From an uncultured Acidobacteriota bacterium (lineage in GTDB: Bacteria; Acidobacteriota; Terriglobia; Acidiferrales; UBA7541): 32,000 nucleotides of DNA. Where the stretch lies: the NCBI GenBank assembly GCA_963804545.1, contig CAWDQW010000002.1, forward strand, positions 567,411-599,410. The letters are read 5' to 3'. Below the pieces are notes generated by a model. It did no database searches. It had not been told where the DNA came from and saw only the letters and a program-made list of their open reading frames with translations. Of the stretch, positions 1 to 5,364 are shown piece after piece. The position numbers and the translations under genes are program-made. The first letter of the stretch is position 1, and every line of letters begins with the position of its first letter.

Positions 1-32
1 GGCCCCAGGGCAGCTGTGAAGGAGGCAAGATT

Positions 33-1274
33 ATGGAACTGTACGCTACAGAACTGATGGGCGCGCAAGCTTACGATGTGCAGGGCAACTTTGTCGGCAG
101 AGTGCGCGAATTCTTCATTGAGCCGGCGCAAGCCACGAACCGGCTATCACATTTCCTTATTTCGCGCGGCCGATTCCAGCCGCTGATTGCCCGGCACGAT
201 CAGGTCGCCAATTTCGCGCCGGGGACGATGCGCCTGAATGTCAGCGAGCGCGCTCTCCAGCTTTATGAACCGAACGAATCGTTGCTGGCCGTGCGCAAGG
301 ATTTGATGGACCAGCAGATCATCGACACACGGGGCCGCAAGGTCGTGCGCGTCAACGACGTGGACCTGACGGAAATGAAAACCAACGGAAATGTTGAGCT
401 GCGCGTCACGCAAGTCGATGTTGGGCTGCCTGGGGCGGTCCGCAGGCTTCTGCAAGGGGTAGTCTCGCCAGGCGTGATCCGTAAACTGCAAAGCAAACTG
501 CCGCAGAGTGCCATTCGCTGGGAATTCGTGAACTTGATCGAATCCGACCCGCTGCGGCGCGTTAAGCTGCGCATCACGCACGAAAAGCTCGAAGACCTGC
601 ACCCCGCGGACCTCGCCGAAATCATCGAAGACCTCTCGGCGGCGGAGCGGCAGGGAATCATCGCTTCGCTCGATGAAGAGACCGCAGCCTCCGTGCTTGC
701 CGAGCTCGATGAACGGCTGACCACACAGATCGTCGAGAAGCTCGATCCCGAAAAGGCCGCCGATATTCTGGAAGAGATGGCCCCCGATGCCGCTGCCGAC
801 CTTTTGGCCGAGCTTCCGAAGGAAACTTCGGAAGAGTTGCTCGAAGAGATGCCCGGCCAGGAAGCCGATGAAGTGCGCGAGCTGCTCTCGTTCGATTCTT
901 CGACGGCCGGCGGAATGATGAATACGCAGTTTGTGTTTGTGGGCGAGGGGTCCCGGCGCGAGGAAGTGCTCGCGTGGGTCCGCAGCCAGGAATTGAACCT
1001 CGACCAGTTGGACACCATCGTGCTGCTCGATGGCAAGGCGGAGTATTCCGGCACGGTGTCCGTCGCCCGTCTGCTGCTCGCCTCTCCGGAACAGAAGATG
1101 TCCGAGCTGCGCAGCGAACCGCTTTTGAGCATTGCCGCTGACGCGGATGAAAAAGACGTTTTTGAGCTGTTCGACAAATACAATCTGCGGATGCTTACGG
1201 TGATCGATGCGGAGAAACGGCCTATCGGCACCGTGACCGTGGACGACGTGGTTTCGCGCCTGGTGAAGAAATAA
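33..1274 (+). CDS. Soluble MgtE-like protein: PRC-barrel-like N-terminus + MgtE N-domain + CBS pair, no membrane domain
   Basis: 413-aa ORF with AAGGAGG at 19-25, 7 nt before the ATG. MgtE_N-type helical repeats: LHPADLAEIIEDLSAAERQGIIASLDEETAASVLAELDE...DAAADLLAELPKETSEELLEEM...TAGGMMNTQFVFV. A CBS-pair-like C-terminus follows. The ORF ends without any hydrophobic MgtE pore domain. Confidence 0.85.
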   Translation: MELYATELMGAQAYDVQGNFVGRVREFFIEPAQATNRLSHFLISRGRFQPLIARHDQVANFAPGTMRLNVSERALQLYEPNESLLAVRKDLMDQQIIDTRGRKVVRVNDVDLTEMKTNGNVELRVTQVDVGLPGAVRRLLQGVVSPGVIRKLQSKLPQSAIRWEFVNLIESDPLRRVKLRITHEKLEDLHPADLAEIIEDLSAAERQGIIASLDEETAASVLAELDERLTTQIVEKLDPEKAADILEEMAPDAAADLLAELPKETSEELLEEMPGQEADEVRELLSFDSSTAGGMMNTQFVFVGEGSRREEVLAWVRSQELNLDQLDTIVLLDGKAEYSGTVSVARLLLASPEQKMSELRSEPLLSIAADADEKDVFELFDKYNLRMLTVIDAEKRPIGTVTVDDVVSRLVKK

Positions 1275-1298
1275 AAGGGGAATTGGCGGAAGCAGCGG

Positions 1299-2618
1299 AT
1301 GAATTGGGAAATTCTCAAATCGAGCCTGGAGGGCCTGCAGACGCGCGGCACGAATCTGCAACAGAAGATTCGCGGCTTGCGGCGGCGCTTGACGTTGCTT
1401 CTTGCGGTTGTCGGGCCGGGGCTAATCACCTCCAACGTCGACAACGATGCGGGCGGCATCGCCACGTATTCGCAAGCGGGCGCGCAGTATGGCTACGCTA
1501 TGCTCTGGGCCCTGATTCCCATGACCATTGCGCTGTATGTCACCGAAGTGATGTGCGCTCGCATGGGCGTCATAACCGGCAAAGGATTATCCGATCTGAT
1601 TCGCGAAGAGTTCGGTTTTCGTTCCACGTTTTTTGTGATGGTCACCGGCTTCTTCGTGGACCTTGCAAACGTCGTTGCGGAATTTGCTGGCGTAGCCGCG
1701 TCCATGGAGATGTTTCACGTCAGCAGGTACATTGCTGTTCCTATTGCCGCACTATTGGTTTGGATTCTGGTGCTTCGAGGAACCTATCGCCAAGTCGAGG
1801 TCATCTTTCTGGTTGCGTGTGGATTTTATGTCACGTACATCATTTCCGCGGTTCTGGCTAAACCGGATTGGTTGGAGGCTGCCAAGCACGTTGTCATTCC
1901 CAACCTGGCATTTAATTCTGGGTACTTGGTTACTTTGACTGCACTTATAGGCACCACGATTGCCCCGTGGCAGTTTTTCTACCTCCAGGCCGGGTTCGTC
2001 GAGAAGAAAGTCGGCCCCCGCAACTATCCGCAAGCCCGCGCCGATGTGTTAATCGGCAGCATCAGTTGCATGGTCATCGTGTTTTTCATCATCGTGGCCA
2101 CCGCCGCGACTTTGTATGTCTCCGGCCAGCGCGACATCACCGACGCGGTGCAGGCGGCGAAGGCCCTGATTCCTTTGGCGGGCAAATGGGCCGGATTCAC
2201 ATTTGCGTTCGGTTTGTTGAACGCCTCGCTCTTTGCGGCCTCGATTTTGCCTCTTTCGACGGCGCATGTGATTTGCGAAGGGCTTGGATTTGAAGCCGGC
2301 ATCGACCATAAGTTCAAAGACGCGAAAATCTTTTACAGTCTTTATACCGTCTTGATTGTCGTGGGCGCGGGAATCATCCTCCTCCCGCACGTTCCCATTT
2401 GGAAGATCTTCATTTTCTCGCAAGTAGGCAACGGCGTCTGGCTGCCCATCGTTATCATTTTCATTCTGCTCCTCGTAAACCGGCGTGATCTGATGGGCGA
2501 GCACGTGAATACGCTCACATTTAATATCGTGGCTTGGGCCACGGCGATCGCTATGATCATCTTGACGCTCGTGCTGGTCTACACCTCGCTCTTCCAAACG
2601 CCGCCGCCGGCGGGGTGA
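1299..2618 (+). CDS. Nramp/SLC11-family transporter of the NRMT (Nramp-related Mg2+ transporter) type
   Basis: 439-aa polytopic membrane ORF starting 24 nt after the previous stop. The Nramp TM1 motif reads VDNDAGGIATYSQAG (DAGG in place of DPGN). The TM6 motif reads LIGTTIAPWQFFYLQAG (GTTIAPW in place of GATVMPH). Confidence 0.85.
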   Translation: MNWEILKSSLEGLQTRGTNLQQKIRGLRRRLTLLLAVVGPGLITSNVDNDAGGIATYSQAGAQYGYAMLWALIPMTIALYVTEVMCARMGVITGKGLSDLIREEFGFRSTFFVMVTGFFVDLANVVAEFAGVAASMEMFHVSRYIAVPIAALLVWILVLRGTYRQVEVIFLVACGFYVTYIISAVLAKPDWLEAAKHVVIPNLAFNSGYLVTLTALIGTTIAPWQFFYLQAGFVEKKVGPRNYPQARADVLIGSISCMVIVFFIIVATAATLYVSGQRDITDAVQAAKALIPLAGKWAGFTFAFGLLNASLFAASILPLSTAHVICEGLGFEAGIDHKFKDAKIFYSLYTVLIVVGAGIILLPHVPIWKIFIFSQVGNGVWLPIVIIFILLLVNRRDLMGEHVNTLTFNIVAWATAIAMIILTLVLVYTSLFQTPPPAG

Positions 2619-2731
2619 TACCCGGAACGCCGTCGCTCGAAACGGGGATGTACGACACGTCACCCTGGGATTGCGTCAGTGCCAAATCGTATGTTAACTT
2701 TGCGGCATAAAGAACAAACTACAGAAAACCC

Positions 2732-3577
2732 GTGCCGTACACGAAATCACACACGACGCTGCAAGTTTCCTCCTCTGGCGCTCTAGGGCCGTTGACGCCG
2801 GAAGAGGCGCTGCTTTTCGAAAAACTCGATCTGGGCCGTCTGCCGCGGCACGTGGCCGTCATCATGGATGGCAACGGCCGCTGGGCCCAGCAGCGGCATT
2901 TGCCGCGTGTAGCGGGGCACCGCTCCGGCACAAAAACGGCGCGCTCGACGATTGAAACCTGTGCGCGGCTGAAAATCGAAGCGCTCACGCTCTACGCCTT
3001 CTCGGTCGAAAACTGGCGGCGTCCGAAAACCGAAATTGATTTCCTAATGCAATTGCTGCGCGAATATTTACGCCGGGAAATGCCGCTCCTGCAAAAGAAC
3101 GACATCCGCATGAAGTTTTTGGGACGCACGGACGAACTTCCCAAAGGCGTGCAGGACGATGTGCGCGACGCCATGGAACGCACGGCCGCCAACAAGGGCA
3201 TGGTCCTCTGCGTGGCGCTGAACTATGGCGGCCGCGCGGAAATCGTGGACGCCATGAACGCGATCCTGGCCGAGCAGAACGGCCACGCCGGCCGCGTCCC
3301 AATTACCGAAGAGTCGCTCGCCCGGCACATGTACACGAACGGTTTGCCGGACCCCGATTTGCTGATCCGTACAAGCGGCGAAATGCGTGTAAGCAATTTT
3401 CTGCTCTGGCAGATTGCCTACGCCGAAATTTTCGTCACGGAAACTCTGTGGCCCGATTTTAACCGTGCCCGCTTGCTCGAAGCGCTCGTCGAATTCCAAA
3501 AACGCGAACGCCGCTACGGCGGAATCCGCGAAGGCCAGCCCGACACGCAAAAATCCGCGCGTGTCGTCGGCGAATAG
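2732..3577 (+). CDS. uppS: Undecaprenyl-diphosphate synthase (isoprenyl transferase)
   Basis: Motifs HVAVIMDGNGRWA and RTSGEMRVSNFLLWQIAYAEIF. GTG start at 2732; the exact start is uncertain. Confidence 0.9.
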   Translation: MPYTKSHTTLQVSSSGALGPLTPEEALLFEKLDLGRLPRHVAVIMDGNGRWAQQRHLPRVAGHRSGTKTARSTIETCARLKIEALTLYAFSVENWRRPKTEIDFLMQLLREYLRREMPLLQKNDIRMKFLGRTDELPKGVQDDVRDAMERTAANKGMVLCVALNYGGRAEIVDAMNAILAEQNGHAGRVPITEESLARHMYTNGLPDPDLLIRTSGEMRVSNFLLWQIAYAEIFVTETLWPDFNRARLLEALVEFQKRERRYGGIREGQPDTQKSARVVGE

Positions 3578-3685
3578 CCTTTGCAATCCTCGACAGCTAA
3601 CTCTGCGGTCTCCCGTAGTATAATTCGGAACATGCAATGGTGGAATCGGATTCCATTCCTTCCTCACGAAGCTAAGGAGCGCCCA

Positions 3686-4387
3686 ATGAGAACCCGCATC
3701 ATCCTTTTGCTTATGGTCCTAGCGAGTTTCTGCAACTTTACGGCAGCGGCCACGCGGACTTACCAAGTCCCGCATAAAAGTGCGCCCACGTCGAGCTCCA
3801 AATCGGCAAATCTCTCAACGATCACCGTAAACGGCGTTGCCGACATTGATCCTGCCAAAGCCTTCGGCTCAAGAGACCCGATTTTGGTCATCGAAATCTT
3901 CAGCGACTTTCAATGTCCGACCTGCAAGCAGTTTTTCGAGACGACGTTGAAGCGCGTCATGGACAACTACGTCACTGGCGCAACGCCTTGCAAGATTTAC
4001 GTAGTTCATCGCGACTTTCTGATCTCTTACCACGCCTATTCCCGTGTCGCAGCGAACTATTCCCGCGCCGCTGCGCACATCGGCAAGTGCCAGGAGGTTG
4101 AAGCTGCTTTGTTTCAGAACCAGCAGAAATGGGAAGCCACCGGCGACGTGAGAGGGACAGTCGCTTCGGTGTTGACTCGCGCTGAGATGAAAAAGGTGCA
4201 GGCTTTCGTCGACGCGAAGACCTTCGAACCCTTCGTGGATCACGACCACCAACTGGGCTTGCAGCTTCCCGTGCGCGGCACACCCACCATGGTGTTTCAT
4301 ACTCGCGACGGCAAGACGTATCCAGTCAACGGTATCGTCAGCTACGATGTGCTCAAGGATTTTCTCGACCAGCTCCTCGTGCGATAG
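3686..4387 (+). CDS. Secreted DsbA-like thioredoxin-fold protein (CPTC active site)
   Basis: FSDFQCPTCKQF CxxC motif. Start placed at ATG 3686 (AAGGAG at 3674-3679), giving signal peptide MRTRIILLLMVLASFCNFTAAA. The ORF track extends to 3581 without support. Confidence 0.75.
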   Translation: MRTRIILLLMVLASFCNFTAAATRTYQVPHKSAPTSSSKSANLSTITVNGVADIDPAKAFGSRDPILVIEIFSDFQCPTCKQFFETTLKRVMDNYVTGATPCKIYVVHRDFLISYHAYSRVAANYSRAAAHIGKCQEVEAALFQNQQKWEATGDVRGTVASVLTRAEMKKVQAFVDAKTFEPFVDHDHQLGLQLPVRGTPTMVFHTRDGKTYPVNGIVSYDVLKDFLDQLLVR

Positions 4388-4458
4388 ATTCTGCTCACAC
4401 CACCGCCGGCAAATAACTCCTCTCGCGTGATTTATTTCTCTCGATATGATGAGATGGA

Positions 4459-5364
4459 GTGAGCCGTACGTCAGGGGATTCCTCTTCAATGACCTGGAAG
4501 CGCGTCGCGACAGCCGCTGTTCTAATTCCGTGTGTGGTCGGCTTGGTTTTGTGGGGCTCGACAGGCCTTATGGCCGTCGGCCTCGCGCTTGTCATTCTGC
4601 TTGCTCTCTTTGAATATTTCGCGTTGGGCGACGCCATTGGCCACCGCGCGTACCGTTTCTGGACGGCCACCTGTGCTCTAGGGCTTGTCTATGTGCAATG
4701 GCTGGCGGCTATCACGCCCTCCTACGAACTCGCCGGCGGACTGACAGTCCATCGCATGGTTGGGCGAATCTTGGGAGTCATTCCCACTCCCCAGGATGTG
4801 TTTCTTATTTTCGTGCTCGGAGTCGCCGCGCTGACGCTCTCGACGAAACGGCCGATTGTGGAAGCCTTGCCGGCCGCCGGCATTAGCGCCAGTGGACTGC
4901 TCCTGGTCGCCTTTCCGCTGACCTTCACGATTCGCTTGCATGGTTATAGTCCCGACGGGCCGAAACTCCTCATGTTTGTTCTGGTCCTAACCTGGGTTGG
5001 CGATACTTCCGCCTATTTCGCGGGGCGCGCGGTCGGAAAGCGCCGCATCGCGCCGGTGCTGAGCCCCAAGAAAACTTGGGAGGGGACGGTTGCGAGTCTT
5101 CTTGGAGCGCTGCTCGTAGCCGTTATTTTTGCGAGGTGGCTGACCGTGCCGCTGCCTCATCTTTTGGGGATGGCCGCCGTCGGTAATTTTGCCGGCCAGG
5201 CCGGCGATTTGCTCGAATCGGCTTACAAGCGCAGCGCGGGAGTCAAAGATTCTGGCACGCTGCTGCCCGGCCATGGCGGTGTACTCGATCGGATCGATGC
5301 GTTGATATTGGCAATCCCAGTTGTCTGGTACTATTGGATTTGGATTTACTTGCCCAGCAGGTAG
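4459..5364 (+). CDS. cdsA: Phosphatidate cytidylyltransferase
   Basis: SPKKTWEG and PGHGGVLDRIDA motifs in a multi-TM protein. GTG at 4459 or ATG at 4489 (MTWKRV...) are both possible starts. Confidence 0.85.
   Translation: MSRTSGDSSSMTWKRVATAAVLIPCVVGLVLWGSTGLMAVGLALVILLALFEYFALGDAIGHRAYRFWTATCALGLVYVQWLAAITPSYELAGGLTVHRMVGRILGVIPTPQDVFLIFVLGVAALTLSTKRPIVEALPAAGISASGLLLVAFPLTFTIRLHGYSPDGPKLLMFVLVLTWVGDTSAYFAGRAVGKRRIAPVLSPKKTWEGTVASLLGALLVAVIFARWLTVPLPHLLGMAAVGNFAGQAGDLLESAYKRSAGVKDSGTLLPGHGGVLDRIDALILAIPVVWYYWIWIYLPSR

Follow-up and report, generated by a model that had tools for sequence, protein, structure and literature searches.

The 32,000-nucleotide window analysed here comes from the genome of an uncultured Acidobacteriota bacterium (genome G000), and its base 1 is position 567411 of contig CAWDQW010000002.1 (contig C2 of that genome). 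At the left end of the window, two genes lie next to each other on the plus strand. Open reading frame 1 (ORF1) encodes a soluble protein resembling the cytoplasmic part of the Mg2+ transporter MgtE, and ORF2 encodes a transporter of the Nramp-related NRMT type. A first-pass annotation of this DNA had proposed that ORF1 is a free-standing sensor that regulates ORF2 in trans; the coordinates, common strand and 24-nt distance that it gave for the two frames were all reproduced from the sequence. We conclude that the window almost certainly carries a soil acidobacterium's ordinary copy of a known operon type, in which a gene for an MgtE-like fragment is combined with an nrmT gene. The parts of this operon that fall inside the window are the following.

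33-1274, plus strand: ORF1, 413 amino acids (aa), ATG start; soluble MgtE-like partner protein with the domain order PRC-PRC-MgtE_N-CBS pair
33-542, plus strand: tandem PRC-barrel region of ORF1; barrel 1 at about residues 1-80 and barrel 2 at about 87-170, followed by a low-confidence linker at 171-181
579-899, plus strand: MgtE N domain of ORF1, helical, residues about 183-289
900-1268, plus strand: CBS pair of ORF1, residues about 290-412
1275-1298, plus strand: spacer between ORF1 and ORF2, 24 nt, terminator-free
1299-2618, plus strand: ORF2, 439 aa, ATG start; by sequence an NRMT-type (Nramp-related) divalent cation transporter
18-25, plus strand: Shine-Dalgarno sequence of ORF1, GAAGGAGG, 7 nt 5' of the ORF1 ATG
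1-32, plus strand: final 32 nt of the operon's 5' leader, the remainder of which lies upstream of the window on the same contig

Since the 24-nt spacer has no terminator, both genes are probably co-transcribed, and ORF1 and ORF2 probably form one transcription unit. At the other end, positions 2619-2731, between ORF2 and uppS (2732-3577), hold no terminator-like hairpin (fold against shuffled sequences, z = +1.36); the operon may therefore extend into the uppS-cdsA-dxr-rseP cluster.

Domain content of the two proteins

In ORF1, Pfam recognised MgtE_N (PF03448) at residues 189-289 (E = 5e-28), a CBS domain at residues 358-411 (E = 3e-7, the second CBS motif alone being scored) and a PRC barrel (PF05239) at residues 2-48 (26.8 bits, cut-off 21.2). 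At the sequence level, ORF1 matched the cytosolic domain of Thermus MgtE (2yvy) with E = 1.4e-27. The match to TIGR00400 was confined to model positions 15-249 of 450 and scored 125.6 bits, below the cut-off of 232.75, which indicates that ORF1 has no membrane part and is not an MgtE transporter. In addition, the protein ends 8 residues past D404-D405, the conserved DD at which the plug helix of MgtE opens, and it therefore has neither the plug helix nor the pore. An AlphaFold2 model built from 47 diverse homologues (mean predicted local distance difference test score, pLDDT, 85.9) consists of beta-rich domains at residues 1-80 and 87-170, a disordered linker at 171-181, a helical N domain at 183-285 and a CBS pair at 290-412. 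In a Foldseek search with this model, the C-terminal 240 residues superposed on MgtE cytosolic domains, the best match again being 2yvy (E = 1e-18, template modelling (TM) score 0.83 on the target, 30% identity), and the CBS pair is visible in both the model and the Foldseek match despite Pfam scoring one motif. The MgtE N domain and CBS pair without a pore, which the first-pass annotation had read from the translation, are thus confirmed. Judged by its sequence, ORF1 is a relative of the cytoplasmic part of MgtE and not an MgtE transporter; homologues of ORF1 are annotated as 'magnesium transporter', 'CBS domain-containing protein' or 'sporulation protein YlmC', and none of these names fits the protein.

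The N-terminal region had been described as a single PRC-barrel-like extension. The PRC assignment held, but the model and Foldseek place two barrels there, at residues 1-80 and 87-170. Modelled alone, residues 1-172 reached a pLDDT of 89.5 and a predicted TM score of 0.82, and the best Foldseek match of the N-terminal 172 residues was to the two-PRC-barrel proteins CdpB1/CdpB2 (8qzo, E = 6.5e-5, TM score about 0.5), followed by the single PRC barrels of 3htr, 8onw, the reaction-centre H subunit and RimM. The PRC region is retained in partner proteins down to 29% identity, and at the genome loci the length of the partner stays at 411-432 aa even at 29-45% identity, which argues that the PRC region is an integral part of the protein and the tandem barrels a constant one. 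Among the relatives, one ORF1 orthologue is shortened to 326 aa (L016:2737-3717), another has an in-frame TGA (G003:C12:216147-217391), and the ORF2 orthologues of genomes G003 and G007 are in two pieces; each may reflect decay or an assembly error.

ORF2 matched the Pfam Nramp family (PF01566) over residues 54-405 with E = 3.5e-91. Its closest solved relative is EleNRMT (PDB 7qia; residues 29-428, E = 2.9e-99, 336 bits), whereas the top classical MntH structure reached only E = 3e-28, and the score against the MntH model NF001923 was 147 bits, under the cut-off of 430. The two strings on which the first-pass annotation had based its NRMT reading, VDNDAGGIATYSQAG and GTTIAPW, are both found in ORF2, and the alignment with EleNRMT gives the complete binding-site signature of that protein. 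In transmembrane helix 1, where DPGN has become DAGG, D50 and G53 align with EleNRMT D55 and G58, so that the Asp is kept and the Asn is replaced by Gly. In transmembrane helix 6, which reads G-T219-T-I-A222-P-W224, T219 corresponds to EleNRMT T224 (Ala to Thr), A222 to A227 (Met to Ala) and W224 to W229 (His to Trp), and the helix-3 Glu and helix-10 Gln are likewise shared (E128 with E133 and Q375 with Q379). The two His positions of the proton path in helix 6b hold W224 and L229 in ORF2; at the second of these EleNRMT has Asn in place of Leu, and neither residue can take up a proton. The roles of the EleNRMT site residues are from Ramanadane et al. 2022 (PMC8806188; PDB 7QIA/7QIC/7QJI/7QJJ), where the T224A mutant identified T224 as the residue that matters most for Mg2+ and where Mn2+ was also carried by EleNRMT.

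Cluster representatives related to ORF2 have the same DxxGG and GTTIxPW motifs. The genome also encodes a classical Nramp with DPGN and GATVMPH, and in a tree this protein stood on a branch of 4.4 units, apart from ORF2 and the NRMT-like representatives, so ORF2 does not group with classical MntH, the placement that the first-pass annotation had named as refuting its proposal. The classical Nramp gene itself (G000:C4:1324587-1325667, minus strand) is matched by two Pfam pieces in different frames (model positions 1-307 and 304-357), which suggests a frameshift near its 3' end that is either real or an assembly error. Taken together, these alignments show that ORF2 has the Nramp/SLC11 fold and, with every residue of the EleNRMT binding-site signature in place, is of the NRMT type. 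It is likely to carry Mg2+ and/or Mn2+ and, by analogy with EleNRMT, would import Mg2+, and probably Mn2+ too, without proton coupling.

Conservation of the gene pair and its published precedent

Genomes were surveyed with an NRMT alignment as the query, at one genome per species, which gave at least 591 loci, and the best 80 of these were examined. Nearly all of the best 80 were acidobacterial, the closest of them bearing Candidatus Acidiferrum/Acidoferrum names, and 75 had enough upstream sequence to be assessed. An ORF1-like gene stood directly upstream on the same strand at 53 of the 75, lay within 3 kb but not directly upstream at 5, and was cut off at the locus edge at 2. A second survey in metagenomes was centred on more distant NRMTs (contig GC content 0.50-0.76; 58 assessable loci), and the full partner was found upstream at 48 loci, a shorter PRC-type partner in which the CBS pair was undetected at 6, and no partner at 4. 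Of 41 genomes sampled from the order, 37 had an ORF1 homologue and 38 an ORF2 homologue, and both genes were present in all 19 high-quality genomes, adjacent wherever they lay on one contig. Co-occurrence across genomes had been proposed as a check on the pairing, and the surveys show that the pair is conserved (53/75 genome loci directly upstream, 54/58 metagenome loci, 19/19 high-quality genomes). The gene pair is a conserved syntenic module in Acidobacteriota and in more distant metagenome lineages.

The six metagenome loci with a shorter gene (L101, L104, L108, L111, L116 and L120; GC content 0.64-0.71) have frames of about 280-385 aa, measured from stop to stop, which match the PRC region of ORF1 only, sometimes together with part of the MgtE N domain. 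These short genes are possibly a reduced form of the partner.

The arrangement itself was described by Shin et al. 2014 (PLoS Genet 10:e1004429, PMC4072509), who reported that most nrmT genes adjoin a gene for an MgtE cytoplasmic domain and who speculated that the partner serves cytoplasmic feedback regulation or acts as a metal chaperone. In their operons, from Clostridium acetobutylicum (Ca_c0685) and Acidobacterium capsulatum (Acp2976/Acp2977), the gene for the MgtE cytoplasmic domain lies directly upstream of the NrmT-group gene on the same strand, as it does here. The A. capsulatum pair is from the same phylum as this locus and is likewise free of an M-box. The clostridial operons have an M-box, and in one of them the partner is split over two genes, whereas here the partner is a single 413-aa protein with two PRC barrels and is preceded by a leader with an upstream ORF and a terminator. 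Regulation in trans is therefore a hypothesis already published, and the first-pass statement that no characterised example exists holds only narrowly, for the function of the partner, since the pairing has been in print since 2014. In literature searches for later work on the partner protein, nothing was found beyond Shin et al. 2014, and searches for leader peptides before nrmT genes found none. A term search of the EleNRMT paper (PMC8806188) showed that every mention of MgtE refers to the transporter itself and that 'operon' and 'accessory' are absent; EleNRMT is thus described there without a partner protein. The constancy of the tandem PRC barrels, the absence of an M-box here and the leader with its upstream ORF and terminator are not in the papers searched.

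Possible roles of the MgtE-like partner

We propose that ORF1 would bind the cytoplasmic face of ORF2, possibly through its PRC barrels, and that its MgtE_N/CBS part would respond to the level of Mg2+ or Mg-ATP in the cytoplasm and would slow uptake when the ion is abundant. The operon type is linked to Mg2+ by the M-boxes at the acidobacterial locus L056 and before clostridial nrmT operons. Thermus thermophilus MgtE (2YVY/2ZY9) has an N domain and a CBS pair of the same fold as ORF1, and its Mg2+ bridging-site residues, taken from PMC5882242, were located in ORF1 by alignment. The acidic pair of the Mg4 site is common to both proteins (MgtE D91/D247, ORF1 D252/D405), and ORF1 D256 aligns with MgtE D95. 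The remainder of the comparison shows differences: ORF1 adds a tandem PRC region of 170 residues and is without the pore, the plug helix and the ligands of two further Mg2+ sites.

Several of these differences and other observations weigh against direct gating. The Mg5 site is lost, with MgtE D226/D250 replaced by ORF1 N384/S408, and the Mg7 site is lost with the replacement of MgtE E59 by ORF1 S220; one of the three mapped cytoplasmic bridging sites is kept, and ORF1 lacks the plug helix through which MgtE passes on the signal. At 15 of the 75 assessable acidobacterial NRMT loci no partner lies within 4 kb, and the transporter can therefore function without one. When the A. capsulatum pair Acp2976/Acp2977 was co-expressed in a B. 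subtilis Mg2+-transport mutant, the partner added no rescue, and the transporter fully rescued an Mn2+ defect but an Mg2+ defect only at millimolar Mg2+ (PMC4072509). The ORF1 module looks like a sensor that retains just part of the known Mg2+ bridging chemistry of MgtE, and we consider it plausible, at a little under an even chance, that ORF1 directly gates ORF2.

The same losses would also fit a protein that leaves transport unregulated and acts as a chaperone or buffer, as an assembly or stability factor, or as a PRC adaptor to another partner. A chaperone activity was offered by Shin et al., whose co-expression was without effect; of all parts of the partner, the PRC barrels are kept most consistently, and the six loci with short genes seem to have them without the CBS pair; and CdpB1/CdpB2, the closest structural matches of this region, crystallise as heterodimers. 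For a pure adaptor, however, the MgtE_N and CBS parts would be superfluous, and they are well conserved over the 47 diverse partners; moreover, the ORF1 fold superposes on the Mg2+-bound MgtE sensor with the Mg4 pair D252/D405 kept. We therefore regard a role of ORF1 that leaves transport unregulated as unlikely.

The acidobacterial pair could instead be mainly an Mn2+ system, with Mn2+ in place of Mg2+ as the ion that ORF2 would take up and that ORF1 would sense. This would agree with the rescue profile of the A. capsulatum homologue, with the Mn2+ transport of EleNRMT and with the lack of an M-box in this lineage. Against it, T219 of ORF2 is kept at the position most important for Mg2+ in EleNRMT (PMC8806188), a true M-box stands at one acidobacterial operon of this type (L056), and the genome already has a classical DPGN/MPH Nramp, though the 3' end of that gene may be frameshifted. 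Moreover, the genome's own assembly yielded no MgtE pore and no CorA match that passed the cut-off. A system devoted mainly to Mn2+ thus seems improbable to us.

A different possibility is an MgtE split in two, with ORF1 as its cytoplasmic subunit and the pore half encoded elsewhere, the adjacency to an Nramp gene being incidental. Pore-only MgtE proteins without N and CBS domains do occur, with about 2,600 cases reported (bioRxiv 10.1101/2025.05.26.656215). However, the pore domain PF01769 was not found in the genome itself (80.6% complete), where ORF1 carries the only MgtE_N domain, and it was likewise not found in 17 of the genus's 24 genomes, seven of which have the operon at a completeness of 93-97%. 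Where MgtE pores are present in the genus, they sit in open frames of at least 459 aa (one of 197 aa), and in genomes G009, G016, G017 and G018 the contig with the pore carries a separate N/CBS match a short way 5' of it; those MgtE genes therefore bring their own cytoplasmic domain. Furthermore, ORF1 is without the plug helix that contacts the pore, and the adjacency to NRMT genes is kept across distant lineages. We rejected the split-MgtE explanation, which is highly improbable, because the pore domain is missing from most genomes of the genus. Among other Mg2+ importers, the genome encodes an MgtA-like P-type ATPase (G000:C4:690942-693423, plus strand), which is represented by two adjacent TIGR01524 pieces (395.7 and 454.8 bits) that jointly exceed the family cut-off and are split as if by a frameshift.

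The leader upstream of the operon

A gap of 493 nt separates ORF1 from the upstream gene, and it contains the following elements, given in coordinates of contig C2.

567000-567028, plus strand: promoter-like TTGACT-N17-TATCAC, the sole recognisable promoter before ORF1
567130-567282, plus strand: upstream ORF, ATG start, 50 codons
567310-567347, plus strand: intrinsic terminator, 13-bp GC-rich stem followed by T6, -25.7 kcal/mol; 95 nt before the ORF1 ATG

The first-pass annotation had suggested a search upstream for an M-box riboswitch, and RF00380 was not matched upstream of the operon; nor did any other Rfam family match the 493-nt gap, the 6 kb upstream or the 9 kb of locus L002 overall at E up to 1. 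In other lineages this slot is filled by the M-box. At L056, contig CADEDC010000025.1 of the metagenome-assembled Acidobacteria bacterium RBC058, a true M-box (RF00380, 115 bits) lies directly 5' of the ORF1-like gene (L056:2447-2631), and M-boxes precede the clostridial nrmT operons (PMC4072509). Within one phylum, the same slot therefore holds either an M-box or an upstream ORF with a terminator. Before the ORF1-like gene of another acidobacterial NRMT operon, by about 200 nt, there is a match to the Acido-Lenti-1 RNA (L042:2398-2447; RF01687, 38.8 bits, cut-off 37), which could be due to chance or represent a further leader type.

Conservation of the leader extends to 19 of the 24 genomes in the genus, and it always lies 5' of the partner gene. 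It is single-copy in its own genome, and no leader with an upstream ORF and terminator precedes the MgtA-type ATPase gene. The same layout was found in all 32 leaders that could be delimited, including a group too diverged for nucleotide search, and the upstream ORF was not found in more distant acidobacterial loci. The distance from the terminator to the gene ranges from 13 to 116 nt over these leaders and is 13-35 nt in many relatives; the shorter gap leaves no space for a separate promoter, and transcription of the operon must therefore read through the terminator. We propose that translation of the upstream ORF would determine how much transcription passes the terminator, making the leader a ribosome-dependent attenuator. 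By analogy with trp-type attenuators and MgtL, slow or aborted translation at the acidic, Pro-containing start would allow an antiterminator to form, and expression of the operon would rise under cation scarcity.

Several features of the frame are consistent with its being translated. The frame was picked as the longest ORF of each leader, and shared end motifs show that it is the same homologous frame throughout. All 32 leaders have it open, over 46-78 codons (mostly 50 or 62), even though the middle part cannot be aligned and has indels in multiples of three. Of the two alternative frames, one has 99 stops and is open in none of the 32 leaders, and the other has 42 stops and is open in 6; shuffled sequences are open in 19%. 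In L022 and L026 the loss of the ATG is compensated by an in-frame start, and the stop codon alternates between TAA, TAG and TGA at one site. The first 14 residues are enriched in Asp/Glu (15.8% compared with 6.7% in the rest) and Pro (12.3% compared with 5.4%), and 28 of the 32 have a Glu-Pro dipeptide there, within the motif S-N-x-x-E-P-G-P/S. A comparable short ORF with Glu and Pro near its start precedes the Mg2+ importer gene mgtA in Salmonella, where translation of MgtL is thought to decide whether transcription continues (PMC6460261). The two leaders also differ: MgtL is 17 codons long and has Pro at positions 3, 5, 7 and 9, whereas the frames here have about 50 codons and one or two Pro in S-N-x-x-E-P-G-P; there is no sequence similarity to MgtL, and the stop signal here is a classic intrinsic terminator.

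Other results count against a translated frame, and some of them would favour a structured RNA, either a riboswitch of a new kind or a small RNA that ends in a terminator of its own, with the open frame as a by-product of base composition. The upstream ORF has no well-placed ribosome-binding site. Nucleotide conservation continues beyond its stop codon as strongly as before it, and a GGGAGG block of the leader falls in different frames in two sequence groups. In group 1, conserved blocks are complementary (GAACUC with GGGUUC, CCUGG with GGGG), and in the sister family the terminator is retained, 25-40 nt ahead of the partner gene, mostly without a long ORF. In addition, the peptide is hardly conserved between its two ends, synonymous and non-synonymous changes stand at about 1:2 with substitutions spread evenly over the three codon positions, and a search among 15 billion predicted proteins did not find the peptide. 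When group 1 leaders were folded in truncated form, the stop-codon region paired with the 5' arm of the terminator, but no statistically convincing antiterminator was found, the duplex energies being no better than those of other windows (mean z = -1.15).

A structured RNA would nevertheless have to account for the consistently open frame, for the stops in the other two frames and for the in-frame replacement of lost starts. Its folding signal is also slight: the minimum free energy z-score of the leader is -0.93, RNAalifold on 11 and on 32 leaders returned only invariant helices and the terminator with little covariation, and no Rfam family matched. We consider it fairly unlikely that the leader is a structured RNA whose open frame is only a by-product, and the structured-RNA and translated-ORF readings are compatible with each other. 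The comparison of leader sequences suggests a regulatory upstream ORF for which being translated counts more than the peptide sequence, with conserved RNA elements around it. A translation-coupled attenuator is, in our judgement, the probable nature of the leader. It is a bolder step, and a somewhat doubtful one, to propose both that the leader is a new ribosome-mediated cation sensor that replaces the M-box in this order and that the tandem PRC barrels dock the sensor onto the NRMT; such a docking role would explain why these barrels are kept more consistently than any other part of the partner.

Directly 5' of the leader, on the same strand, lies a gene for a CYTH-domain protein of the triphosphate tunnel metalloenzyme family (L002:4742-5539). 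It is found in the same position in L179-L190, throughout the order, and in some genomes of the sister family it ends about 50 nt before the terminator of the partner gene. A prolyl oligopeptidase gene on the minus strand (L002:2143-4747), 1.3-3.9 kb upstream of the window, appears split in two ORFs, one with the N-terminal propeller (3887-4747) and one with the rest and the S9 domain (2143-3741).

As a whole, the explanation of the locus as a known operon with a sensor partner and a leader attenuator appears to us reasonably likely. The domain calls, the motif reading and the conserved two-gene unit of the first-pass annotation stand, and its claim to novelty does not, because the hypothesis was published by Shin et al. 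2014. Two points are modestly new: the constancy of the tandem PRC barrels in the partner, and the presence of a clade-specific leader with an upstream ORF and a terminator in the slot that holds the M-box in other lineages. The role of the MgtE-like protein beside NRMT genes is a question that dates from 2014, and the idea of gating in trans gains no new test from this locus. The locus does supply a conserved acidobacterial pair from genomes without an MgtE pore, a confidently modelled partner structure that includes both PRC barrels, and a clade-specific leader that can be used to ask which ion the operon answers to. If it is true that ORF1 gates a transporter of an unrelated fold, the sensor domain of a channel would be reusable as a free-standing regulator.

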